Below are positions 9,183-42,300 of a stretch of 64,000 bases of DNA, piece by piece. The stretch is taken from the NCBI GenBank assembly GCA_010093995.1, contig ML992510.1:689272-753271 (forward strand), given 5' to 3'. The stretch is from Elsinoe ampelina. Lineage: Eukaryota. The notes beneath the pieces are model-generated. The model was not told the origin of the DNA and searched no databases. It worked only from the letters and a program-made list of their open reading frames with translations. Every line of letters starts with the position of its first letter. The first letter of the stretch is position 1. Both the position numbers and the translations under genes were made by a program.

Positions 9183-10922
9183 ACGGGTCCCCTCACGCCA
9201 GGGCTCCACCAGGTCGACTTGAGGCTTCAGTACTTATGGTCGACTTTTTCCTTTCGTTCCGGTAGGGAGGTCGTGGGACTTGCTCGATGCGTTCCAAGTA
9301 GCCGAGTCCAGTAATGGGCCGAGGTCTGCAGGATGAGGCATCCGTTCTTCGATCATCCTCCGGTCTTTTTCTTTCTCTCTGTGGATACTTGCATGACTTG
9401 ACGTCAATGCGGAAGCGAAGCAATGTGGGACTGAAATGCTTCGCAGGTCATGCGATATAGGGAAATGGAAATAACTTCTCAGAATGCTCTAGTGCCAGTG
9501 CAATCGATGTCGATGATGAGGCCGTTTTATAAATGCGATTGAATGCGCCGACATAGCCACCGGGCATTGCTTGTGTAGCTGTTTCGAGATGTGTTTGGGT
9601 GGAAGGGTCGTGTAGCAAGTCGACGGGTAAGAGGTGGGGAAGGGCAGCCACCATACAGGCTGCATGTGGCAAAGACGAGCTGAGAAGATGACAAACACGC
9701 AGGCAGGACAGACTATAGTTTTGTACATTCAACGAGGACTCAGCTCTACTGATTAGTCCAACAATGAATCTGCAGGTGGCACAAAATTGCAGTTCAGCTG
9801 AGCCGCAATGAATCCACTTCAGATCCCTGCTCGACCAGTCGTGTTGCTCACTCAAGCGCCCGGCCCAATCAACTACGCCGCTGTGCTCAATGGTATTTAT
9901 CCTGGACGTATGAATAGTCGCGGGACCGGTGACGGACTGGTCGTCGTTCCGGTCATTGTTGGTCATCGTAAGAGGCTACCACATTCGGTGATTTAGCTGC
10001 GCAAGCGGACTGCGACGTTGGAAGGCTGCTGGTAGGATTGGCACATATATTTTCTGATATTGCCTGACATGAGGCCTGACATGAGGATTGCACGGTAGCA
10101 GACTGCCCAGTCAAAGAAATGCCAAATCTGCGGATTTTTCACGACAAAAGGATCTCTACAAACGTAGTGTTGATTTCGCAGGAGTATCGTTGACGCCCTG
10201 ATCATGCCTGACTTGAAAGCCTTTCCCGAGAAGCCCCAAGGCCAGCGATTGGACTTGGCAAGTTACACAGAAGTCCACGGATTTCAACGACATGTTCCAC
10301 AGAGCTATATTCCTGGCACGGGACACATCTATCAAATACATTGTAGCGACACTCCGATACATTGTCGGCAGAATCTATTACTACCAGGCACGGCAACGTT
10401 CTTTCAATAATTGCTTTTGCCCTGTTTGCCAAGATGGACGGCGCCCATTTGTATCATGTTGAGCCTAGGGACGCTGCCAATCTACAAGTTCATGCGGCGC
10501 GGTTCGTCGCTTTATGGGCATATTCTCCACCTGCTGCAACCATAGGATCTCCGGGCTGTGAGTAGTAGACAGGTTAACAACAAGTAATCTGACCATGAAG
10601 AATGATACACAGTCTTCATTATCCACTTCGCACCTCAGTCACGATGGCAGACATCTCATCAGGGCCCAAACAATGGTTCCGCTTAGCGCTGCATCTTCGG
10701 GTCGACCAATCACGTCTGATCTGCGGCCCTAGACCAGGGTATTGCAGATGAAGACCCAAGACGATGGTTTCAACCAGACCTGCAGCCATGCGGCGCAGTT
10801 TGGCGCAGAAAACTGCGCGCTGCGTTTTGTTGAAGAGCTGCAGCCCGCCCTGCGCCATGTGATGGCTTTTGCATAGCAGACTCGACGACGTGCAGACCCT
10901 CAGGTCGAGGTATACGGGAGGC

Positions 10923-13900
10923 ATGTCCCGACATCATGGGCTGTCATCCGACAAAGAGGTCGTGGAAGCCCGTGTACACCTAATCGCACAACCCTCGGAC
11001 GAAAAGGAACTTTTCGATCCTTCAGTGCACATCACCAGCATTGCTCCTTCACTGGATGACCGATCAGGACGACCGCCTTCAGCAGACGACAAGCAAGTTC
11101 TTGACACTTCGAAACAGCTTCGGGAGACGCTCTGGACACCTCTGTTCTTACGACGTCCAACAACATTTGCATTCGTCGCCTGCGCGTTGATCATTTTGGC
11201 CGTCGCGGAGGTGCTGAATGCGCGATCGAACAAGGACAATGGGCTAGTCTGGGCAAAACCGAATTTGCACTACCTATGGACCTTTGGTCCCACCGCAGTG
11301 CTTACTATCCTGGCCGCACTATGGAACCAGGTCGATTATCAGGTCCGGAGGAATGCGCCGTTCGTGAAGATGTCCCAGGCCAAGCTCCTGGCTCATGAAT
11401 CTGTGCTTCTGGACTATCTCTCACCATGGGACCCCCAAGCTTTGGTGACAGGGATTAACAGGAAGGACTGGCAAGTCTCTCTCAGCGTGCTGGCATCGCT
11501 CTCCCTTCGCCTGCTGATTGTCCTGTCAACTGGACTATTCGCACTTCGCTATCCCTCCGTTCGTGGATCGACAGCACTCCTTCAAGCAGACCGCTTCGAC
11601 TTTGCAAGGACGGCTCGGAACCCCAGCGACCCGGGAAAGCTAACTTCGGACGGGTTGAGCCCTGCGATCTTCAACGTTACCTACAATGATGGAACGGACA
11701 GTCATTATGCTGCACAAAGCTTTAGGTTGGCAGCAGGGACTATCGGGACGAATGCAACATTGACGGCTAACGTTGATGTTGTGTCCGCGGATTTGATATG
11801 CGAGCAAGCTGATTGGACATATACGAATCGCTCGTTTCAATACGTCGGTACGCTTAACGATGCGCCTGTTGATGTGGACATCTGGACGGATACGTATGCG
11901 CTGTCCGAGTATAGGATGAAGCTCACCACACCGGCATCGATCCCTTTCGATGACTGGGACATGTCCAAAGTTCCAATTGTCAGCAGCAACGCCGGCCCTG
12001 GTTGGCTGACGGACCATGCATTTGTAAACGCCACTTGCGAGAACAAAAAGTCGAACTCGAATCAGCCCTGCTATCTCATCGCGCTTGTACTTTCCGATTT
12101 CTACAATGAAACAGTCCCGAGTAACCTCGGTGGAGGACAGGGCTTCAAGCAAACTTCGACTGTCACCGAGCAATTGACCCGAGACCCAAACTTGCCTCAA
12201 GCGACAAACTCTGTGCTCATCGGACGGCAAGTCTTTCAGACTCCGGACAGTGGTGGTCAGTGGTTCACTGGGGATAATGTCTACATCCGACAAATGACTG
12301 CTTTCTTGTGCCAACCCAAAGTCACATATGCTCGGGCCGAAGTCAGCACTGCTGCTGGACAATCCTCCACCACTGGGGGCATCAATATCACTCGGATTTT
12401 GGAAGAGATTCCGACCACTTCTGTGGGCCTGTCCGCTTGGGAATATGCTGAGAAGGTCCGGACCGCCGCTCTTTCGGATGGCTTACTCACGACGTCGTTT
12501 CGTCTCACCAACTTCTTCGCTCTGATGGACCTCGTCGCCCGGAGGGGTTCATACCAGGACTACATGGATCCTGCGATCTTATCAAATACAGCTCGAGATG
12601 TATTCCGTAGAATATCCGCGCAGTATGCCAAGCAGGAGCTCACCGAGCCCGCAGAGACCACAATCGAAGGTCAGATGATCGACGTGGGGCCACGACTCAC
12701 CGTTGAGGCCTTGACTCTACGGCTCATGGATGGCTTCTTGATAGTGTTCGCGTTATGCGCGCTGGGTATCTGCTTATTCTTCGTCTTTCCCGGCCTGCCC
12801 CGCGACTTCAGCTCGATAGGATCACTGGCATTACTGCTCAGTCGCAGTCCAGATCTTGCACGTATCTGCTCTGGATTAGGCTCTGTCCGACTGAAGCACC
12901 TTGGTACTTGGATGCATGGTTACCGATTCTCCACCAGCTTTACGCGCGATACCACTTCTCGTATATATCAGATCAAGGCTGAGCTGGATCCGTCGGTCCC
13001 GGAACAAGACTCGCCGCCCCTTGCACAACAGGAACTGAAATGGTGGCGACCTGCAATGTTCGGACGGCCGCTACGAGTACTCACCGTTCTTGTGCCGTTA
13101 ATCTTAGTAGCATGCCTCGAATATGGACATCGCTACTCGGATCGACACACAGGCTATGGCATCGTTCCCCAAGGAGGATACCTTAAGTATGCTTGGACGT
13201 TCGCCCCAGCCATTGTCATGGTAGCCACTGCATCCACCTTCTCTGTACTCGACTTCAGCACACGTACGTTCCAGCCGTATCATGCACTTTCTGGAGCCCG
13301 GAAGGCATCTGCCAAGGATCTGGTGGAGACGCCATTTGGATACTTCGCGGCGTTCTCTCTTGGACGGTCTCTACTGCGTCGTCAATGGGCTCTGAGTGCT
13401 ACTTCGTTGGCGATCTGTATCGCACCCTTCTTGACCATCGTTGTCAGTGGTCTCTTACAAGCAGAGAACATCGGCATTGGTCAAGGAAGAGCTGCCACCA
13501 TACATCAAACTTTCCTTCCGGACAACATCAATAACTATGATAACAACGTGGATTCTAGCCAGGGTATAGTGCCTATGATAGTGTATGAGAATGTCTCTTA
13601 TCCGGCTCTGACGTTTAACAACCTGGTCTTTCCCAACTTCACTCTCGAGACCAACGCTTCAACCCCACAGACATCCCGCTTTGAGGTCAACATCCCTGCA
13701 GCAGCGATGGAGTCTGAGTGCAAAGTCATCGAACCGAAGATTCTTTCATGGACTACCAGACCGCCAACACAGGGACTCAACAGTACTGAATGGACAGTTG
13801 ACGGGCGAATTGACCTCTCGTCGTATGGAAGCTGCAGTCAAGTCAACAGAACCTCGGGACAGAACACCACTACAACCACCTTACCATTCAATGTGCAAGA

Positions 13901-14798
13901 GAGTCTCTCCAGCTACGTTTCAAAGCCGGCCGCAGAATCTACCTTCGGCAGCAGAGTGACTGCTAACTTTGCCAACACCACCTGCAATGGCCAACGAGTC
14001 GGCTATCTGTACGCTTTAATGCGCCTCAAAGCCAGCACAATTCAAGATGTGGTTATCATCAACTGCAAGCCAAGAATCGACATCGTCAGCGCAAATGCAA
14101 CAGGCAGGTCATCCGATTACCAGATCAGTGACGCAACCATCCTGGACGACCCGTCTTCTCCGAGACGCACATTCACCACTCATTACTCACAATTCAACTC
14201 TGCAAAGCTGCCATGCCCCGGCAACCCTCCCTTCCAGACCTCGCTCGGCTGTGCAACTCAAGCCCTGTTAGCCTACGCCGGGCTGAACGAAGCAGCTTTA
14301 TTCCAACCCACCAACGCCACAGCACTCGCCACCGCCTTCACCAATCTCCTGAACATCATTTACGCAATGCGCTTCACTTACTGGCAACGCGCCTCCACGG
14401 AACAGCCACCATCAAGAGGCGTCTTCTTCCCCGCAACCACAAGGCTACAAGCCTCCATCCTCGACCAGACTGAATACAGGGTAGTGCAAAGCCTGATCTC
14501 GACTCGCATCCTCCAAGCGCTGCTAGGGACCATGTCGCTGTGCGCACTCATCGCCTGGGCCGGTACACGCTCGAAGAAGGTCCTGACGAAGAACCCGCAG
14601 AGTATCGCGGCTGTGGCGTCGTTGCTGGTGGACGCGGATATGTTGAGGGATATACCGCCTGGCGCGGAGTTTATGGATGATAAAGAGTTGAAGAGGAACG
14701 GTGTCTTTGAGGGTGGGTTTTATAGTATCGGGTGGTGGGGAGATGACAGGGGGAGGAGGTTTGGCATTGATGTCGGGCAGGCGGAGAAGCCGACGTAA
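10923..14798 (+). CDS. DUF3433-family large multi-pass membrane protein (intronless, ~1290 aa)
   Basis: Long ORF with two DUF3433-like units (LWTFGPTAVLTILAALWNQVDYQVRRNAPF..LLDY; YAWTFAPAIV..LDFSTRTFQPYHAL), N-glycosylation-rich loops, and C-terminal NPQSIAAVASLL..GWW..RFGIDV. Confidence 0.85.
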   Translation: MSRHHGLSSDKEVVEARVHLIAQPSDEKELFDPSVHITSIAPSLDDRSGRPPSADDKQVLDTSKQLRETLWTPLFLRRPTTFAFVACALIILAVAEVLNARSNKDNGLVWAKPNLHYLWTFGPTAVLTILAALWNQVDYQVRRNAPFVKMSQAKLLAHESVLLDYLSPWDPQALVTGINRKDWQVSLSVLASLSLRLLIVLSTGLFALRYPSVRGSTALLQADRFDFARTARNPSDPGKLTSDGLSPAIFNVTYNDGTDSHYAAQSFRLAAGTIGTNATLTANVDVVSADLICEQADWTYTNRSFQYVGTLNDAPVDVDIWTDTYALSEYRMKLTTPASIPFDDWDMSKVPIVSSNAGPGWLTDHAFVNATCENKKSNSNQPCYLIALVLSDFYNETVPSNLGGGQGFKQTSTVTEQLTRDPNLPQATNSVLIGRQVFQTPDSGGQWFTGDNVYIRQMTAFLCQPKVTYARAEVSTAAGQSSTTGGINITRILEEIPTTSVGLSAWEYAEKVRTAALSDGLLTTSFRLTNFFALMDLVARRGSYQDYMDPAILSNTARDVFRRISAQYAKQELTEPAETTIEGQMIDVGPRLTVEALTLRLMDGFLIVFALCALGICLFFVFPGLPRDFSSIGSLALLLSRSPDLARICSGLGSVRLKHLGTWMHGYRFSTSFTRDTTSRIYQIKAELDPSVPEQDSPPLAQQELKWWRPAMFGRPLRVLTVLVPLILVACLEYGHRYSDRHTGYGIVPQGGYLKYAWTFAPAIVMVATASTFSVLDFSTRTFQPYHALSGARKASAKDLVETPFGYFAAFSLGRSLLRRQWALSATSLAICIAPFLTIVVSGLLQAENIGIGQGRAATIHQTFLPDNINNYDNNVDSSQGIVPMIVYENVSYPALTFNNLVFPNFTLETNASTPQTSRFEVNIPAAAMESECKVIEPKILSWTTRPPTQGLNSTEWTVDGRIDLSSYGSCSQVNRTSGQNTTTTTLPFNVQESLSSYVSKPAAESTFGSRVTANFANTTCNGQRVGYLYALMRLKASTIQDVVIINCKPRIDIVSANATGRSSDYQISDATILDDPSSPRRTFTTHYSQFNSAKLPCPGNPPFQTSLGCATQALLAYAGLNEAALFQPTNATALATAFTNLLNIIYAMRFTYWQRASTEQPPSRGVFFPATTRLQASILDQTEYRVVQSLISTRILQALLGTMSLCALIAWAGTRSKKVLTKNPQSIAAVASLLVDADMLRDIPPGAEFMDDKELKRNGVFEGGFYSIGWWGDDRGRRFGIDVGQAEKPT

Positions 14799-15139
14799 TT
14801 GAATGAGGAAGAGAAGGACGAGTAGGTACGCATGATAGATACCCAAGCTTAATCTCAACGACTATTACTTGATGCATACACAGAATCATTATTCACAGGG
14901 CAATACCACAGTCACAGTGTCTGTGTTCAAAATATGAGGCAAGGAAATGGTCATCAATTTTAGAAGTACAGAATGTTGATCAAGAAAACCACCCAGCCCC
15001 CCATCCTCCCGAACTCCTCGCTCCTATTGGGACATCAGTACATGCCAGACGAATCAGAGCTAATCATACTTACTACCAGAAACAACGTCGCCACGCCCCC
15101 AACCGCCCGACCCAGTCCAGCCCTGGTAGTATCTCCGCT

Positions 15140-16476
15140 TTCTTACAGCAAATTAGTCTAGGTCGATCACAATCCTGACACAGCAGCACATACACTCTAC
15201 ACCCATGAAGACATCATCATCTAGCCAGACAAGTCAGCTACACTTCTACCATGAGGCAGCATCACAAGGGTCCGACTGACCGGACGCAGCAGCGCTGTCC
15301 TCTCCAGTATTCTCGGTCACTTGATATCGTCAGTACTGAATGACATTGTGGTGAAGTTGTATCTACCGGGACCAGCGGCCGGACCGGCGGGGGGTGGATC
15401 TGCTACAGAATTAGCGGCGTCCAAGCATGGCACAAGATGATCCTACCAGCGACCGCTTGACCAGCAGTGTTGGCTGCTAGCTCTGTCAGTATCATCTTCG
15501 AGTGATGACGGATCGGCGATGCTAACGAGGGTCGGCTGGAGAAAAGTCAGTCTTGAGACGACATGCGAGACGAAAGAGATGTGTGAAAGAGTGATGGGAT
15601 GCTCACCGGCTTGACCTTGCTGGTCATTTGGACCAGGAGGAGGGTTGGCTACAACTATTAGAATGGTACTCGAACCGCGTCGGGCTAGAGATGCGAACCA
15701 CCACGACCACCGCGGCCGCCACCACGACCACCACCGCCACGACCACCGCGGGAAGCGCCACCACCGCGCGCACCACCACGACCAGCAGCAACACCGGCCG
15801 CGCGGCCGGTAGCGTTGCCCCAGATTGGGCAGTCGCTGATGTTGTGGTGGTGGGAGTGACACCCACGACCACCCCGACCGCGACAGTACAGACGACGACC
15901 GCCCCCACGGCCACCGCAACGTCCCACCCCAGCACCTGCACCAAGTCAGCTCCCACACACCTACCAGACCACAACGACGAACCACCACGAACGCCACCGG
16001 CACCCACCACGACCGCACCGCCGCGAACACCACGAGCACCTGGTATTTATCAGCCTCTTGATCCTACTAGAACCATCATGTACGAACCGCCACGACCCCC
16101 TGGTAGTTATCAGCCCCTTGATCCTACCAGAACTATCATGTACAGACCACCACGACCACCGCGCCCACCTCCACCACCACCAGGACCGCCAGGATTGTCT
16201 GATATGAAGTGAGTCTTGTTCTGTGTCCGATAGTTGCTGTACTAACTGCCGAAAGCCCTTGCCAAAGCAGCAGCCAGAGCAGCAGGATCTTGCTCCGTGT
16301 TGCCGATCTGTCAACCGTTAGTGTACAGTCTTGTTGTGAAGTGTTAGATGGAAGAGAATGCCTCGCTGGAGAAGAAATTAATGCCATACCCATGTGTAAA
16401 GCACTGACCACAATTTCCAGGCTATCGGTACCAGTCTGCTGACAATCAGTGATCAGGACTCCCCAGAACTCACCAT
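15140..16476 (-). CDS. Cryptic micro-exon gene: ~210-aa RGG-rich protein with CCHC-like knuckle (putative RNA-binding)
   Basis: Exons 16476-16474(?), 16435-16409(?), 16307-16247, 16198-16148, 16099-16088, 16039-15983, 15935-15699, 15648-15607, 15535-15527, 15476-15447, 15402-15367, 15319-15281, 15220-15194, 15141-15140. Introns are GT-AG with branch-like motifs and splice into one open frame ending ..SDDDVFMGVE*. The 5' end is uncertain. Confidence 0.75.
16028..16159. repeat. ~60-bp tandem repeat (48-nt intron + 12-nt exon unit of the RGG gene)
   Basis: Near-identical units: tggtatttatcagcctcttgatcctactagaaccatcatgtacgaac and tggtagttatcagccccttgatcctaccagaactatcatgtacagac. Confidence 0.9.
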
Positions 16477-17932
16477 CAATCATTCGACAACACGTCGCAA
16501 CAATAGTCACGGTTAAAATTTGATCCCACTTCAAGAGCCTCTTTTGATCTGGTGTACCTTGCTGTCCTCTCTATACCCGAACTCTTCTGTAAATTCGCGC
16601 TCTCGCCACAAAAGCGTCCCGCTCTGGATCGAATGAATCGAGCGAAACGGGTCCAGAGGTAAGCAGTCCACAGCCAAGATACCGATACCTCATCAAGTCT
16701 TTAATCTGATCCGCAATTGCAAGCACCTTTCTGTCGGAGCCGTCGACTACTCCTGCGCAAAGACCCGCCAAATTCTCGGCAGCAGGGATGACGACGAATC
16801 CCATATCGAAGGCACAGCTCAACTCAATCAGTGCCACAACATTGCATCGTCATCGACATCGCTCGCTGTGAGCCTTTCCGTATCCAATTGTCAGAGGCGA
16901 AGAAACATGCCATCGCTATCAAAGCCATGGATTCAACGATTGTCTCTGCATCAGATCCCGCGCCAGCAGTATCATCTCCGCTTTAATGAGAGGGTGGAGT
17001 AAACCCTGACCTAAAGGAACACCTCACTTGCCCGCGTATCCGCGCATAGACCGTCTTCAATTCCTCGTCATCAATACACCAGGGTCAAAATCGGAAATCG
17101 AGCCTATCGCTCATCACCTTTAGCTTGTCGACAACGAGGTGGTATACTCACTTATCACAACATACTTATCCTAGCATAGAGCATGAGAAGCTTGCCATCA
17201 TATACGATCAAGAACAAAGGTGTCACGGCAGCTCATTCATGCAATTGCAATTGGAGGATGTGGCTGGTGATCCACTTGAGAAGATTGTTGTCGGCATTTG
17301 TCATTCTTCCCTGCGACCAAGTCAGCACAATCTTCAACTGCTTCACATACCCAAAGTTGGAGAATTGAACAGTGGTGTGATCATCCGCTGCTTGTGTCGT
17401 GCCTTGGCGGTCTCCACACCTCAAGATCTTTCGGGTAGACGCGATGCGAATGGTTCTTGTTGGGTCTGTGACGGAAGTGCTATATGGCGAGCACGAAGCG
17501 AGGATTGGCATGCGGATATTGTACAGGTGTTCAGTGCCGTTTATTAGGCGTGCAGCGGATAGGATTACGGGAATGTTGTGGAATGTTGTTGTTCAAGCGA
17601 AGAGGACGATTAATCTGAAGCATGTCGCACGAGTATTGTACTTTTTTGGTATCGACGAAAGCATTGAGTGTTTGAGCCGTGGAGCTGATGGCATGAAGGC
17701 TTGTCGCCACCACTTTTCCGAAGCGTTGATGCTCAAACCCAATTATGAGTCAAGCGCAAAGCCGATCTTATCGAACGCCGCACCGAAAGCAGTCAGGTGA
17801 TGTAGAAAAGCTGAACCACAGGCCGATCCGAAAGCTGAACCTCTGCCTGTCGACGTGTGTCGATTCGCAGTCTTCGCCAACCCGCGTGTCCACCAAGCCG
17901 TTTGTCCTCGGACCTGTATGTCAGTATCCCTA

Positions 17933-18931
17933 CTAACGACGAGCATACCTATCCTCTCCGTAATCGCCGCCACCACCGCCGCCAGCACTGCGGGCGGGAG
18001 CAGCTCCAGCGTCGGGGTAAGCAGCTGCATCTCTTGGAGGACGATCGTAGCTACCACCACGGCGATCGTAGTCACGACCACCTCCACGTCCTCCGTAATC
18101 GTCACGGCCTCCTCCGCGTCCGCCATAGTCGTCACGATCGCGTCGTCCACCACCATAGCCGCGGTCATCGTAGCGGTCACGGTAGCCTCCACGGTCGTCG
18201 TAGCGGTCGCGGTAGCTGCCACGATCGCGGTAGTCATCACGACGTCCACCATAGCCGCGGCGGTCATCACCGTAGCGATCGCCACCGCCGAAACGTCCAC
18301 CACCACGACGGTCGTCTATTGTAGTCAGTCAAGTGGCCAGCTTTTGTAGTGTATAAGTACTCACCCCTCTTGGGTGGGCCGAAATATTTTCCTGGGGTTG
18401 GGTTGCGGGGCTTGCCACGACGAGCCTTCTCAATGCTCAGTGTACGGCCTTCGATGACCTCGCCGTTCAATCCGTTCTTTGCTGCGTCGGCCTGATCGGC
18501 AGTGACCATCTTGACGAATCCGAAGCCACGAGACTCGCGAGTGTGGGGGTCGCGCATGATGCTGCAGCTCTCGACATCGCCGTACTTTTCGAAGAGGCGC
18601 TGGATGTCAGTCTCGACGAGACGAGGATGGATTCCGGTGCAGAAAAGGTTGCTGCCTTCGTTGGGAGCATCTGCGTCTTCTTCGCGGTTCGCAGGGGGGG
18701 CAGATGGCCTGCCGAGTCATTAGTCTCGGGTCCAAACAATCACAATCGCATTATTTACCTGTCATCGGCAGCGTCGCGAATGCGAGCGTCGCCATCACGG
18801 TCAGCGCGCGGCGAACGCGAGCGATCACGAGAATAGGCGGCATCGTCTGGAAAAAGTCAGATCCTTGTCATAGTGCGGCGGAAGCTTTTAAACGTACCCT
18901 CGTAGCCGCGCTGGTCGTTCTCGTACTCCAT
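17933..18931 (-). CDS. Single-RRM Tra2/SR-like RNA-binding protein with RD/RGGY low-complexity tail
   Basis: Exons 18931-18898, 18846-18759, 18708-18365, 18315-17933. RSRSP motif, RNP2-like NLFCTGI, RNP1 RGFGFVKM, PTPGKYFGP, and DRYG/DDYRG repeats. Confidence 0.9.
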
Positions 18932-19565
18932 GATGATTTTTGAGAGAGTCAGGCAGATGTGAGAGATGTGGAATCAAGAATTGAGTGTTTGTTGGGAGAG
19001 GAATGGAAGGAGAAGGTTGTCGAAGAGCGTTGCGTACGAAAGCAGACGAAAGGAGCTGCCGTTCAGCGCACGGACCAATGTTGGGCTACTTCTAGAAGAG
19101 TTTGTACTGTTTGCAGTCGTAAGAGTCACAACTTGTGTCCACTCTCATCATCACCAGACTTCTGTAAGTATATCTTCACCTCATGCTGCACATGTCCATT
19201 GAAATCTTAAATATGTCATCGCGTGAAGCCAAAGGCGATCTGGCCAACACTGATACGGCTTCTTACCCTTTCTGACCGAGCTTATCACGTACTAAACAAA
19301 CTGACATAGACGTAGTGCCTTCTGTCGTAGGTGATTCGCAGATAGGACTTCTTTCTTACGCTTCGCAGAGGTATTTTCATACTCACCGGGCAGCTGGCAG
19401 CGACCACAGAACACACGACCTGTTGCACGTACCTGCGAAGGACGGCCCTCACCTCTTTCCATCTGGTATTACCCTGGATCGTGGCAAGACTGTCAGTCGC
19501 GCCCTTTCAAGAAGATCACCTACTCTAATCATTCGAGCTGGCAGTCTTAGTCTGCTGTTGGTAGG

Positions 19566-33788: not shown

Positions 33789-35796
33789 TCAGATGCTAGT
33801 TTGCTGACCCCCGGGAGGAGCGAATCCGCCCCTACCCCGACCAGCATAACCACGATTGCCACCCCTGAAGCCGCGGCCTCGGTACCCACCCCGCCCGCGG
33901 AAAGCGCTACTTTCGCCAAAGGTCTCCATGTTTCGCTTCCTCTCTTCAGTCCTGAACTCGCTGCCGCCAAGTCTCTTTCCATCCTGCTCCGCTGCTTGAC
34001 GATCCTTCAGTTCGCTGCTGAGATTGTCGAAGAAGCTCGAGCCCTTGTCGTACTTCTTTGTGTTTGCACCTGGTATGACAACATCACCGTCATCGTGCTT
34101 CGCAGCGCCATTTGTGCCGTTCGCGCCGTTCGCGCCATCAGTGGTCTCATCGGGTGTGCCCACAGGTGATCCAGTGGCGATTGCTTCCTTGACCAGATCC
34201 TGCTTGTTGAACTTGGCATTCGAAGATTCGAAGTCAAAGTCGGAAGACGGCACTTCGATACCATGACGAGGAGCACCGCCACCTCGGCGCGGTCCACGAC
34301 CACCGCGAGGAGCACCAACTCCGCGCTGACCGCCACGACCCCGCGAATCGGATGTACTGAGATTGCTGATCTTTTGCGCCAGTGACTCTGCCGTCTCGCC
34401 GGTCGGTCCAGGAGGCTTGCCCTGACCTTGAACGGGTCCCAATTTGGCCATGGCTGCTGCGACCGCTGCCGCAGCTGCTTGGGTAGCATTCTGGGTAGAC
34501 TGTGAAGCTCCAGGCTGCTGCGTCGGAGCTGCCGATTTCGGCGCTTGCACGTTCTGCCTCGAAGCCAAGGGTACGGCCACCTTACTGTTGCGAGGCGCTG
34601 ATTGGCTCTTGGCCTTAGGCTCCGTTGGCACATTTGTCTCGGGTTTAGTTTCTTTCGGAAGTGGTGGTGCACTTGGGTCGGTGGCACCAGGCGCAGGAGT
34701 GGCTGACAGTTCGGTAGGCTTAGATTCTGTAGGAAGTGGTGGTGGCTGTGCGCCCTGCCCTTGGCTTGGGGTTGGTTGCTTGGGACCAGGTCGCTGATTT
34801 TCCTGCAGAGGACTGGGACCGCTGGGAGGTATCTGCTGACCTTGCTGTTGCTGGAAGTTGCCTGGCCCACCCGGTCCGCCAGGTGGACCTTGAGGGAAAC
34901 CATGACCGGGAGGAGGATACCAGCCAGGTGGAGGGGGTCCATTGGGACCTCCAAAATTCGGACCGGGGCCTGGGCCATAGCCTGGTACTGCGCCAGGCGC
35001 GCCAGGGAATCCATGTGGTCCACCTGGAGGTGCGAATCGTGATTGTTGTTGTGGGTAACCGCCATATGGGGAGAAGCTCTGCGGAGGGGGTGGACCGCGC
35101 CATTGCTGGCCGGGGCCTTGTGGAGGCCCTTGAGGAGGACCTTGAGGGGGGCCTTGCTGTTGTGGAGGGCGAGCAGACTACAATGCATTAGCTTCGAGCG
35201 TTGAAAGCTATATGAGCGAGATGGTAATTGGAGTGCTAGTCAGAAGGAAGGCAACGGAAGTGTCCACATGGTTTTGCGCTCTCGGATAGACAATAATGAT
35301 TTACATCCGGAATATTTCATCATTCGAAAAGGGAATCTGCGAGATCGGGAGGTTGACTTACACCGAGAATCGCAGGGTCATTCGGCATCTGAGGTTGCTT
35401 GCTCTCCTGGGGTTGTTCGATGATCGTGAGGTCCTTCACATCGCTCCCCCTGAAGACAATGTATTCGTAGATCTGGTCGGATGGTGCTATCTCTTCAGCC
35501 GGGTTCCCCCTTCTGCCTTCAGTGCCGAAGGACTTGACATTCTCGAGCGCGACTGTGGAGTTCTCGGAGTTGATTTCGTGAAGGGTCCCGACATATCTGG
35601 TCCAACGTCAGTATTGTGTCGCGACTGCATATGACTTGTCTATGGCTTACTTGATGTCGCTTTTGGAGATGAGGGATATGCGCGCGCTGCAAAGTGTTAG
35701 TCGTGTCCTGATCTGATTGTTCCAGATAGAGCTCGTCGCCAAGGGAGCATTGGAGCTCGCGCGATCGCCCTAGACGTACCCTATGAATTCGGACAT
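33789..35796 (-). CDS. SCD6: Scd6/Lsm14/Sum2 translational repressor (P-body protein)
   Basis: Exons 35796-35780, 35686-35651, 35596-35362, 35177-33789. Lsm domain (ISLISKSDIKYVGTL..SFGTEGR..YIVFRGSDVKDL), DFDF, FFD and TFG boxes, RGG tail. Confidence 0.96.
35236..35328 (-). ncRNA. snR52: Intronic box C/D snoRNA, predicted guide for 18S Am420 (snR52-like)
   Basis: Lies in the 184-nt SCD6 intron 3. Box C ATGATGA (35323-35317), box D CTGA (35243-35240), preceded by TGCCTTCCTT, complementary to conserved 18S AAGGAAGGCA; the +5 rule points to yeast-numbered A420. Confidence 0.75.
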
Positions 35797-39300: not shown

Positions 39301-42300
39301 AGAGTAGGAGTATTTCTTAGCTATATAGATAGAACTAACAGGATATATAAGATATAGGTACCTAATAGGAAGGCAGTAATTATATCACTAAATATTAAGT
39401 TCTCTAAATTTAAGAAAGGTAGGAATATTAATCTTAGTATTAAGATTAGCACTACGAGCAATTAAGCACTAGTTAGGAGACTAATTAGTAGACTAACCTA
39501 GATCCGAGCCCGGCTTAATCCTAAGGTAGACTAATTAGATTAGCCTATTTAGTAAGAAGCGCCTATAGGGAGAATCTTCTTACATATCGAGATCCTAAGG
39601 GTTAACCCTATTAACCTTACAGAATTCTAACGTAGAGAAGAGCTAATAGTTTAATCTATATTACCTAATTATGCAGGTTAATCACTTAAGAGATTAAGAG
39701 ATAAAGAGTCTAATAATAAAGAGCCTAAGGTAAAGCATTATAGAGCATTTATTGCTAAGTGTATTAATTAGCAAGATAAGGTTAATAAGATTACTATAAC
39801 AGCCTCTATTAAGTAATATGTCCTAATTCTAAGAGACTACTATAAGGCTGTTACTAATCTAGTTTAGGGAGGTAAGTAGCAGGAAGTAATTAATATAGAG
39901 CTTAATACTCTAGGATTAAATAACACATAGGAAGAGGTTGTCCCTCTAAAAGAATTAAACTTAGTAACATCTAAGTAGGTCTTTAATGTTAAGTACAACA
40001 CGGATAGCTCTATTAAGAAGTTTAAGGCTAGACTTATTACTAGAGGCTTCTTATAGAAGTATAGCATTAACTATAAAGACATATTTATACTAATAGTTAG
40101 AGTAGATACACTAAGACTATTCTTTACTATTGTATATATACTTAACCTTAAATGTCATTAGGTGGATGTTAATAATACCTTTACAGAATTATTCCTTAGG
40201 GAAGTAATTTATATAAGGCTACTACCTAGACTTAAGGTCTAACCTAGCATTGCCTTCCGCATTCTTAGGAGCTTGTATAGACTTAAGCAAGCTGCTAGAG
40301 ATTAGAATTAGCACTACATCTCTAAGCTTTTAAAGCTAGGCTTTACTTAGAGCGAAGTAGACCTCTATCTTCTTATATACTATAATAAGAAGATTATTCT
40401 CTTAGTTTATGTTAATAACATACCATTTACAGCATAAAGCAAAGAGAACATCTAGTAGTTTAAGCAAGAGCTTAGTAGAATCTTCAAGATTAAGAATCTT
40501 AGTAAGGTTAGCAAAGTTCTTAGGGTTAAGGTTATAAGAGACAGATAATAAGGAACCTTAAGGCTTAACTAGACCTACTATGTAGATAATGTGCTATAGA
40601 GGCTTAATATAACCTCTAATAAGGCTACTCTAACAAAGTAGCTAATAGACAATAAGCTTCCTTAGAGAGCTTAGACTAAAGATATAAGGTTTAGTAGAAC
40701 TAAGTACTTATATGCTATTAGAAGCTAGATATACCTTAGTACCCTAATAAGACTAGACACTACCTTTGCCTTAGGAAGGCTTAGTTAGTTCATAGCAGAT
40801 CTAATAGACAGCTATACTATTAAGATAAAGAAGATGTTAAGATATATTAGATTAACTAAAGATCTTAGTATAGTGTTTAGGAGGAATAGTAACAAGACTC
40901 TTAAGGGATATTCTAATTCAGACTATGCCTTAGATAAGACAGACAGAGTCTCNNNNNNNNNNAATTAGATTAGCCTATTTAGTAAGAAGCGCCTATAGGG
41001 AGAATCTTCTTACATATCGAGATCCTAAGGGTTAACCCTGTTAACCTTATAGAATTCTAACGTAGAGAAGAGCTAATAGTTTAATCTATATTACCTAATT
41101 ATGTAGGTTAATCACTTAAGAGATTAAGAGATAAAGAGTCTAATAATAAAGAGCCTAAGGTAAAGCATTATAGAGCATTTATTGCTAAGTGTATTAATTA
41201 GCAAGATAAGGTTAATAAGATTACTATAACAGCCTCTATTAAGTAATATGTCCTAATTCTAAGAGACTACTATAAGGCTATTACTAATCTAGTTTAGGGA
41301 GGTAAGTAGCAGGAAGTAATTAATATAGAGCTTAATACTCTAGGATTAAATAACACATAGGAAGAGGTTGTCCCTCTAAAAGAATTAAACTTAGTAACAT
41401 CTAAGTAGGTCTTTAATGTTAAGTACAACACGGATAGCTCTATTAAGAAGTTTAAGGCTAGACTTATTACTAGAGGCTTCTTATAGAAGTATAGCATTAA
41501 CTATAAAGACATATTTATACTAATAGTTAGAGTAGATACACTAAGACTATTCTTTACTATTGTATATATACTTAACCTTAAATGTCATTAGGTGGATGTT
41601 AATAATACCTTTACAGAATTATTCCTTAGGGAAGTAATTTATATAAGGCTACTACCTAGACTTAAGGTCTAACCTAGCATTGCCTTCCGCATTCTTAGGA
41701 GCTTGTATAGACTTAAGCAAGCTGCTAGAGATTAGAATTAGCACTACATCTCTAAGCTTTTAAAGCTAGGCTTTACTTAGAGCGAAGTAGACCCCTATCT
41801 TCTTATACACTATAACAAGAAGATTATTCTCTTAGTTTATGTTAATAACATACCATTTACAGCATAAAGCAAAGAGAACATCTAGTAGTTTAAGCAAGAG
41901 CTTAGTAGAATCTTCAAGATTAAGAATCTTAGTAAGGTTAGCAAAGTTCTTAGGGTTAAGGTTATAAGAGACAGATAATAAGGAACCTTAAGGCTTAACT
42001 AGACCTACTATGTAGATAATGTGCTATAGAGGCTTAATATAACCTCTAATAAGGCTACTCTAACAAAGTAGCTAATAGACAATAAGCTTCCTTAGAGAGC
42101 TTAGACTAAAGATATAAGGTTTAGTAGAACTAAGTACTTATATGCTATTAGAAGCTAGATATACCTTAGTACCCTAATAAGACTAGACACTACCTTTGCC
42201 TTAGGAAGGCTTAGTTAGTTCATAGCAGATCTAATAGACAGCTATACTATTAAGATAAAGAAGATGTTAAGATATATTAGATTAACTAAAGATCTTAGTA

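Follow-up and report, generated by a model that had tools for sequence, protein, structure and literature searches.

We report a gene of unusual exon-intron structure on the minus strand of a 64,000-nucleotide (nt) stretch of the genome of the grapevine-scab fungus Elsinoe ampelina (contig ML992510.1 of assembly GCA_010093995.1, positions 689,272 to 753,271 of the forward strand), which is referred to below as the window and is numbered from its own first letter. The gene spans about 16804 to 14942 or below, and in less than 1.9 kb it is interrupted by about 14 introns, each 44-141 nt long, a density of about 7 introns per kb; the neighbouring genes checked in the window have 0 to 3. We consider it probable that this is a genuine protein-coding gene, with constitutively included micro-exons and a disordered product rich in RGG repeats, which has been deposited but mis-modelled. 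The proposal of a preliminary description of this DNA, namely that a real gene is spliced here from the minus strand, consists largely of micro-exons whose lengths are multiples of three and encodes an RGG-rich protein predicted to be disordered, is supported by the analysis presented here. Its remark that the neighbours are intron-poor (0-4 introns) also fits, since the adjacent gene for an RRM protein has three spliced introns and the DUF3433 gene on the other side is one open frame of 1311 codons.

Eleven minus-strand introns had been named from the letters of positions 15140-16476, and at the level of the sequence this was fully right: all eleven run from GT to AG, the exons that they bound (51, 12, 57, 237, 42, 9, 30, 36, 39 and 27 nt) are all multiples of three, and joining these exons leaves a single glycine-arginine frame free of stops. 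A branch motif CT[AG]A[CT], its A lying 9-13 nt before the end of the intron, is present in ten of the eleven; the intron at 16199-16246 has ACTCAC only. A strict intron motif (GTNNG[TC], 44-75 nt in length, with CTRAY and AG) finds 12 donor sites on the minus strand of 15020-16600, compared with a background of 0.56 per kb (both strands, first 36 kb of the window). When the region was shuffled 500 times, 0.71 such sites were found on average and never more than 6. No other 1.6 kb of the gene-rich first 36 kb is as dense in the motif, and the cluster exceeds chance by far. The gene also extends past the coordinates first given in both directions, with two phase-0 introns and a 228-nt exon upstream and a further intron, 15024-15073, downstream.

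Evidence from transcripts was taken from the assembled contigs of four public runs (X1-X4), which share one organism label and come from two studies. The runs have no RNA record, and their contigs were taken to stem from spliced molecules solely on the ground that GT..AG introns are missing from them. Joints, and the absence of joints, refer throughout to the contig pieces listed, with 13 further pieces lying outside that set. Two short contigs of run X2 make eight joints inside the gene (15648/15699, 15535/15607, 15476/15527, 15399/15447, 15319/15367, 15220/15281, 15141/15194 and 15022/15073), all of them with GT..AG ends on the minus strand. At the RNA level the eleven introns first named accordingly fare unequally. 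Six are joined exactly as given (15142-15193, 15221-15280, 15320-15366, 15477-15526, 15536-15606 and 15649-15698). One is 3 nt off: the intron given as 15403-15446, followed by a 36-nt exon, is contradicted by the X2 contig, which uses the distal CAG (15400-15446) and leaves a next exon of 33 nt, still a multiple of three. One, 15936-15982, is backed by an overhang only, in that an X1 contig ends at 15936 with 14 letters that match 15984-15997 and occur once in the window; the three at the 5' end have no joint. The 9-nt exon is real, with a joint on either side of it in X2.

Some contigs of X2-X4, of depth 47-55, touch just 15701-15734 and have long unlike flanks; these were assigned to another glycine-arginine gene and set aside. 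Two contig ends fall exactly on splice sites, that of X2 contig 8 at 15982, the first base of the intron 15936-15982 which it retains, and that of X1 contig 3 at 16308, the acceptor of an upstream intron. Such ends could be due to chance, to breaks in the assembly graph between spliced and unspliced forms, or to splicing intermediates.

The reading frame agrees with a coding function. All ten of the internal exons are multiples of three, which has a probability of 1.7e-5 if exon lengths are uniform modulo 3, or of 5e-5 with a duplicated unit, described below, counted once. The spliced 598 nt contain no stop in the RGG frame and 2 and 4 stops in the other two frames, and without splicing each frame of the stretch contains 10-16 stops. 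On shuffling, the RGG frame was open in 51 of 5000 cases and any frame in 180 of 5000. The commonest codons in the RGG frame are GGT for glycine (44 of 72) and CGT for arginine (13 of 31).

Our best gene model combines the 5' part of the deposited model with the RNA-supported junctions and has 284 codons and 13 introns in the coding sequence (CDS), two of phase 0 followed by eleven consecutive introns of phase 1, the latter 47-71 nt in length. Read in the direction of transcription, the putative first coding exon (16577-16804; 228 nt, 76 codons) equals residues 1-76 of the deposited protein and is covered unbroken by an X1 contig. It is followed by intron A (16436-16576; 141 nt, phase 0, weak donor GTATAG), which comes from the deposited model only, by a 27-nt exon from the same model (16409-16435), by intron B (16308-16408; 101 nt, phase 0, GTCAGT..CTAAC..CAG), which is in the deposited model and has its own signals, and by a 61-nt exon (16247-16307). 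Intron 1 (16199-16246; 48 nt, GTTAGT..ACTCAC..CAG) is the first of phase 1, placed by its signals and also found in the deposited model. Intron 2 (16100-16147), a 12-nt exon (16088-16099) and intron 3 (16040-16087) all lie inside a tandem duplication of a 60-nt unit (16028-16160, 2.2 copies). A 57-nt exon (15983-16039) then precedes intron 4 (15936-15982; 47 nt, GTTCGT..CTGAC..CAG), the intron spliced in the X1 overhang and retained in X2 contig 8, and this is followed by the largest symmetric exon (15699-15935; 237 nt, 78 whole codons), which is present in contigs of X1, X2 and X3.

From this exon onwards each junction of the model is a joint in X2. Intron 5 (15649-15698; 50 nt), a 42-nt exon (15607-15648), intron 6 (15536-15606; 71 nt), the 9-nt micro-exon (15527-15535), intron 7 (15477-15526; 50 nt), a 30-nt exon (15447-15476) and intron 8 (15400-15446; 47 nt rather than 44, with a tandem acceptor TAG-CAG) lead to the 33-nt exon (15367-15399), and this in turn to intron 9 (15320-15366; 47 nt), a 39-nt exon (15281-15319), intron 10 (15221-15280; 60 nt), a 27-nt exon (15194-15220) and intron 11 (15142-15193; 52 nt). 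The joint across intron 11 is unambiguous, and the intron splits the stop codon, so that TAA is assembled by splicing from the T at 15194 and the AA at 15141-15140. Intron 12 (15024-15073; 50 nt, GTAAGT..TAG; the joint is listed as 15022/15073, a cut at +1) was absent from the preliminary description and lies in the 3' untranslated region (UTR), its donor 66 nt beyond the stop codon. The last exon, also 3' UTR, is given as 14942-15023, as far as the contig reaches, X2 contig 7 covering 14942-15022.

The start of the frame is less certain. The deposited model begins with the ATG at 16804-16802, from which we infer the start used here; several out-of-frame ATGs lie directly upstream of it, and if intron A stays in, the frame would instead start at the next in-frame ATG, 16483-16481. 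A candidate mini-intron of 35-38 nt, from GTGAGT at 16472 to CAG at 16438 or 16435, was rejected on inspection by eye, as it breaks the frame from either ATG.

The preliminary description held the gene to be hidden and missed by annotation, and in this it was mistaken. The peptide of the 237-nt exon (P0001) matches one protein, with 100% identity over the exon: the 277-amino-acid hypothetical protein BDZ85DRAFT_251219 of Elsinoe ampelina (P0002), deposited for this locus. In the same search 8000 candidates were scored among longer proteins, which makes it weak as a negative. The deposited model places introns at 16436-16576 and 16308-16408 and agrees on the intron 16199-16246. It then diverges: it splices 16147 directly to 16040, with loss of the 12-nt exon; another donor takes it 18 nt into intron 4, which leaves an implausible intron of about 29 nt; it takes an acceptor for intron 5 that lies 6 nt upstream of the contig-supported one; it passes directly from 15607 to 15320, without the 9-, 30- and 33-nt exons; and intron 11 is kept in, so that 13 intron-encoded residues at the C-terminus replace the splice-made stop. 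In spite of the omission of four exons (12, 9, 30 and 33 nt) the model remains in frame. The contigs contradict it at intron 5, at the 15607-15320 jump and at intron 11, and weakly at intron 4. The locus is thus mis-annotated owing to its micro-exons, and it provides an instance of a public fungal gene model that is wrong in this way, with four exons lost, three junctions misplaced and a false C-terminus. Errors of this kind spread into the protein databases.

The 284-residue product of the best model is 25% glycine, 14% alanine and 11% arginine and contains 13 RGG and 17 RG motifs. Its charge is unevenly distributed, with a net charge of -1 over the first 105 residues, which are non-repetitive, of +20 over the RGG segment and of -10 over a tail rich in proline, alanine and aspartate. 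A tri-RGG element is defined by three RGG motifs with 0-4 residues between them; closely spaced repeats are present in this protein, with several runs in which the motifs are 0-1 residues apart. Alongside RGG repeats the 237-nt exon encodes a degenerate Cys/His motif, C-x7-C-x4-H-x4-C. The CCHC zinc knuckle (zf-CCHC) has the spacing C-x2-C-x4-H-x4-C, and this assignment was rejected on account of the over-long first spacer (x7) and the lack of a Pfam profile match. Pfam gave no family at E up to 10 for the deposited protein and none up to 0.01 for the exon peptide; in the scan of the deposited protein no RRM, LSm, KH or other RNA-binding domain stands beside the RGG repeats. An AF2 single-sequence model of the deposited protein has a mean pLDDT (predicted local distance difference test) of 34.6 and no confident fold, and the ESM Atlas model (pLDDT 0.36) likewise has none; ESM Atlas gave feature matches of at most 0.78 and TM scores of at most 0.36, and no leads. 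No signal peptide is apparent by eye in the deposited N-terminus, which has no basic n-region and a hydrophobic run broken by Glu/Asn, the start itself being uncertain. We hold the product to be a predicted disordered RGG protein, restricted to its lineage. From the RGG motif class only, we infer that it may be an RNA- or ribonucleoprotein-associated, arginine-methylatable protein of the condensate type; RGG is a motif class and not a homologous family, and function is therefore only suggested.

Relatives were sought in several ways. A phmmer search with the deposited protein against 1.84 billion (1.84e9) representative proteins returned the protein itself and one low-complexity RGG match only. 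That match, P0003 (153 amino acids, phmmer E 1.3e-4), was rejected as a relative, since it consists of RGG low complexity and has a BLASTP E of 18. A word-seeded search of a set of 5.8e9 proteins with residues 1-106 returned the query alone. When metagenomes were scanned with the first-exon peptide, one locus (L001, 2145-2945) was found among 598 pattern matches. It holds a bacterial open frame of 266 amino acids, which looks like a class I (S-adenosylmethionine-dependent) methyltransferase, and it shares with the fungal N-terminus an identical run of 10 residues, including the 8-residue search pattern, and little else. This was judged to be a pattern-selected chance match, because phmmer and Pfam show no relation and the shared run contains the search pattern. 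In the literature on the Elsinoe ampelina genome and its introns, and on the locus-tag prefix, nothing was found on the gene, supplements being outside the scope of that search. As an orphan with no demonstrated function, the protein has limited biological weight as long as neither isoform diversity nor a phenotype is established.

Part of the array still carries a record of how it arose. Tandem Repeats Finder reports at 16028-16160 a 60-nt unit in 2.2 copies, with 84% matches and no indels, and one such unit equals a whole 48-nt intron plus a 12-nt exon. This directly shows that the array grew here by duplication of an intron-plus-exon module. Duplication of modules whose length is a multiple of three automatically gives introns of the same phase and symmetric exons, and we envisage that a triplet-periodic, low-complexity coding array may have grown by tandem duplication of units made of an intron and a symmetric exon, of which frame-neutral ones alone would survive in a coding array. 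Among the 14 introns, 2 and 3 are the sole similar pair. In the RGG part, three of four introns split a glycine codon (G|GN), intron 5 splitting an alanine codon (G|CC), and three of the four donors read GTTCG[TC], the fourth being GTCTGT; this likeness of donor and codon split is compatible with common descent, the remainder of these introns being no longer alignable. The C-terminal exons resemble each other weakly, with 60, 125 and 258 out of 2000 shuffles attaining their local alignment scores, and an origin of these exons by module duplication is at best suggestive. The idea that coding repeats became intronised at intron 4 (a 36-nt period at 15957-16040, 74%) was rejected as too weak in G/T-rich sequence. 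The 60-nt unit bears both on intron gain and on the origin of symmetric exons, for here the number of introns has been caught growing by tandem duplication inside a coding repeat.

A different form of intron multiplication is represented by introner-like elements, which are near-identical introns in unrelated genes. They have been connected with recent intron gain by multiplication in Dothideomycetes in the available part of PMC4457414, and so share with the present gene the fungal class and the idea of intron multiplication. The RGG gene differs in that only two introns, in tandem, are alike, and no copy of any of its introns was found elsewhere in the 64-kb window.

The preliminary description likened the architecture to that of the micro-exon genes (MEGs) of schistosomes, for which a 2010 report by DeMarco et al., to go by its title, reportedly describes protein variation by differential exon use. 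The analogy stands for exon symmetry. In the accessible text of PMC10526429, MEGs have short exons of 6-81 bp that are mostly multiples of three and are hard for automatic annotation, and the RGG gene likewise has exons of 51, 12, 57, 42, 9, 30, 33, 39 and 27 nt, all multiples of three. Its frame would survive the loss of any short exon, it too is difficult to annotate, and its product is predicted to be disordered, as MEG products are said to be in the part of PMC10399815 at hand. The analogy does not extend to intron length, as MEG introns measure 100 to almost 5000 bp in the same extract of PMC10526429 and those of the RGG gene 44-141 nt. MEG products, in that extract, have a conserved N-terminal signal peptide and are secreted, and none is apparent by eye at the deposited N-terminus of the RGG protein. 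Furthermore, nine symmetric exons of at most 57 nt make up about 35% of the RGG gene's CDS (300 of 852 nt), with the 237- and 228-nt exons accounting for most of the rest; the phmmer search with the deposited protein gave no sequence relationship to MEGs, the host is a fungus and not a flatworm, and skipping was not observed among the joints listed.

By its product the gene resembles the proteins with RGG, or glycine-arginine-rich (GAR), boxes in having RGG and RG motifs clustered in a glycine-rich disordered segment, and members of this class, of the Scd6/LSM14 type and of the RRM-RGG type, are also encoded in the window. It differs from them in having no accompanying RNA-binding domain, and no DNA similarity was found between it and the tail of the neighbouring RRM gene. 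Vertebrate elastin and the 1-1 symmetric module exons of animal extracellular proteins combine uniform phase-1 borders with long introns, exon definition and documented skipping. In these genes, as in ours, every border splits codons alike in a repetitive, low-complexity protein and the exons are interchangeable in frame; they are animal genes with long introns, whereas the RGG gene has introns of fungal size and no documented skipping. On this comparison the elastin-type phase-1 cassette layout would be a nearer formal analogue than the MEGs. Among filamentous ascomycetes, the transcription factor Xlr2 of Trichoderma virens has a single functional microexon, and the excerpt of PMC11121469 available to us states that no functional microexon of a filamentous fungus had been described before 2024 and that those of fungi in general are poorly characterised. 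Xlr2 offers one regulated microexon, on the same excerpt, and the RGG gene a run of micro-exons in an orphan gene; an RNA-supported 9-nt exon together with eleven consecutive phase-1 introns is an extreme architecture for a filamentous ascomycete. An RNA-supported run of micro-exons in one fungal gene is unusual, but symmetric micro-exon architecture is no new principle.

How such exons are handled by the spliceosome bears on the claim, made in the preliminary description, of combinatorial splicing with a tunable RGG dose. Each intron carries its own donor, branch site and acceptor and is most likely recognised singly, by intron definition; the introns of 44-71 nt with individual signals fit this mode, in which exon size is irrelevant. 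Tiny exons would then pose no problem, and the default product would contain all of them. The data contain nothing in favour of combinatorial splicing: both of the X2 contigs that cross the 3' micro-exons contain each one, and no exon-skipping joint was found among the joints listed for the four runs, although the micro-exons are covered by one run and contigs drop rare variants. The splice variation that is observed is the retention of intron 4 in one contig and its splicing in another; small acceptor shifts at introns 5 and 8 are suggested.

A MEG-like cassette gene, in which symmetric micro-exons are skipped in many combinations to give differing RGG doses and tails, is nevertheless worth weighing. 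All the internal exons being multiples of three, every skip would stay in frame, and the duplicated unit supplies donor 16147 with a second acceptor, at 16040, by which the 12-nt exon is dropped. Intron 8 has in-frame tandem acceptors with a spacing of 3 nt, and intron 5 a pair spaced by 6 nt. The four smallest exons are precisely those missing from the deposited model, which would represent a skipped isoform if it was built from transcripts; that gene predictors commonly miss micro-exons is, however, a simpler account of it. The 12-nt exon would alter the RGG count by one in 13, and the complete set of 3' micro-exons in both X2 contigs speaks against frequent skipping, with the reservation on rare forms already made. 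Introns of this length with strong individual signals point to intron definition, and skipping is rare in fungi, intron retention prevailing over it, as far as the accessible portions of PMC12861292 and PMC6142364 go. Taken together, these points make a MEG-like gene distinctly unlikely.

The stop codon made by splicing and the spliced intron in the 3' UTR give the messenger RNA the layout of a target of nonsense-mediated decay. Under the exon junction complex rule, decay is elicited when an intron is spliced out more than about 50 nt beyond the stop codon; here 66 nt separate the end of the stop, at 15140, from the next joint, 15074/15023, which would place the transcript within the rule. Were duplicated intron-exon modules to yield in-frame RGG variants (through the 12-nt GRGG exon, the 9-, 30- and 33-nt exons and NAGNAG shifts), with intron retention and the 3'-UTR intron routing the rest to decay, the gene would be a cassette gene of ascomycete making. 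We think this very unlikely. If true, the principle known from schistosome MEGs or from elastin would have its first counterpart in a fungus, and one that works under intron definition.

Several observations weigh against the reading of the locus as a protein-coding gene of about 14 introns and constitutive micro-exons. No joint was found among the listed pieces for the introns 16199-16246, 16100-16147 and 16040-16087; X1 contig 3 (16123-16308) is unspliced across the first of these and into the second, and X1 contig 4 (16390-18315) is colinear with the genome across intron A. The 5' third, including the start codon, is drawn from splice signals and the deposited prediction. All of the joints in the gene come from the two short contigs of run X2 alone, and X2, which has no RNA record, may stem from the genome's own project. 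It is odd that a productive messenger should have its stop made by splicing and a further intron beyond it, in the 3' UTR. There is no homologue and so no conservation to back coding or function, and the openness of the frame is only modestly unusual for A-poor sequence. The uniform phase of the six C-terminal micro-exons is unexplained by module similarity, and an origin by duplication is demonstrated for a single unit, the remaining introns being unlike one another. Contig coverage limits some of these points: X2-X4 have none on 16004-17506 and X1 none on 15002-15669, and 16040-16122 is uncovered by all four runs, so that for introns 2 and 3 and the 12-nt exon the contigs are evidence neither way.

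A rival reading is that of a spliced transcript without a functional protein: the locus would be young or in decay, a proto-gene confined to its taxon, or the source of a non-coding RNA, and the symmetric exons would be a relic of duplication in a triplet repeat and not of selection on a reading frame. The searches of 1.84e9 representatives and, for the N-terminal part, of the 5.8e9-protein set gave no homologue, the product lacks both a domain and a fold, splicing creates the stop and an intron follows in the 3' UTR, the 5' part is unspliced in X1, and an A-poor composition leaves frames open fairly easily. A relic of duplication is nonetheless hard to reconcile with multiples of three in ten exons out of ten, six of them in the non-repetitive C-terminal part that is beyond the reach of triplet periodicity. 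The RGG frame alone is fully open, GGT and CGT are its commonest glycine and arginine codons, and for a locus of recent origin fourteen well-formed introns is a high number. We accordingly judge the absence of a functional protein to be unlikely and retain the protein-coding gene as the better explanation.

The upstream neighbour, at 17933-18991 on the minus strand, encodes an RRM protein (Pfam RRM_1, E 9.5e-19) with a tail rich in arginine, glycine, aspartate and tyrosine. Its introns 18316-18364 and 18708-18757 are spliced in all four runs and both studies (joints 18315/18365 and 18707/18758) and its intron 18847-18897 in three runs (joint 18846/18898). The X1 contig of this gene continues about 1.5 kb beyond the RRM stop, to 16390, and those of X2-X4 end at 17618-17770. 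An intron-like element (GTATGT..GCTGAC..CAG) at 17310-17348 on the minus strand, between the RRM gene and the RGG gene, is unspliced in the X1 contig, and Pfam matches none of the surrounding open frames.

It might be asked whether the whole region is a spliced read-through extension of the RRM gene's transcript, as the X1 contig is unbroken from 18783 to 16390, save for the RRM gene's own introns, and so passes the ATG at 16804. A contig across two genes does not prove one molecule, however, and the RRM frame stops at about 17933. The RRM contig stops short at 17770 in X2, 17642 in X3 and 17618 in X4, yet X2 has the spliced 3' part of the RGG gene. A read-through origin is highly improbable on this evidence, and a separate protein-coding gene is again preferred.

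Downstream, a convergent gene on the plus strand (10863-14798) consists of the uninterrupted 1311-codon frame and contains two DUF3433 stretches (E 2.9e-38). An X1 contig reaches 14859, which brings the 3' ends of the two genes to within about 80 nt of each other. Elsewhere in the window, at 33789-35610 on the minus strand, another gene for an RGG protein has RGG/RG repeats at its C-terminus, and we take its frames to encode an LSm14/Scd6-like N-terminus and an FDF-type motif; over a 47-nt stretch (34294-34340) it shares 83% identity with the RGG-coding sequence of the micro-exon gene. Over the last 28 kb (36000-64000) the GC content falls from 50-60% to 26-35%, and the window's only run of N (40953-40962) lies within this AT-rich block, which is presumably of the kind left in ascomycetes by repeat-induced point mutation.

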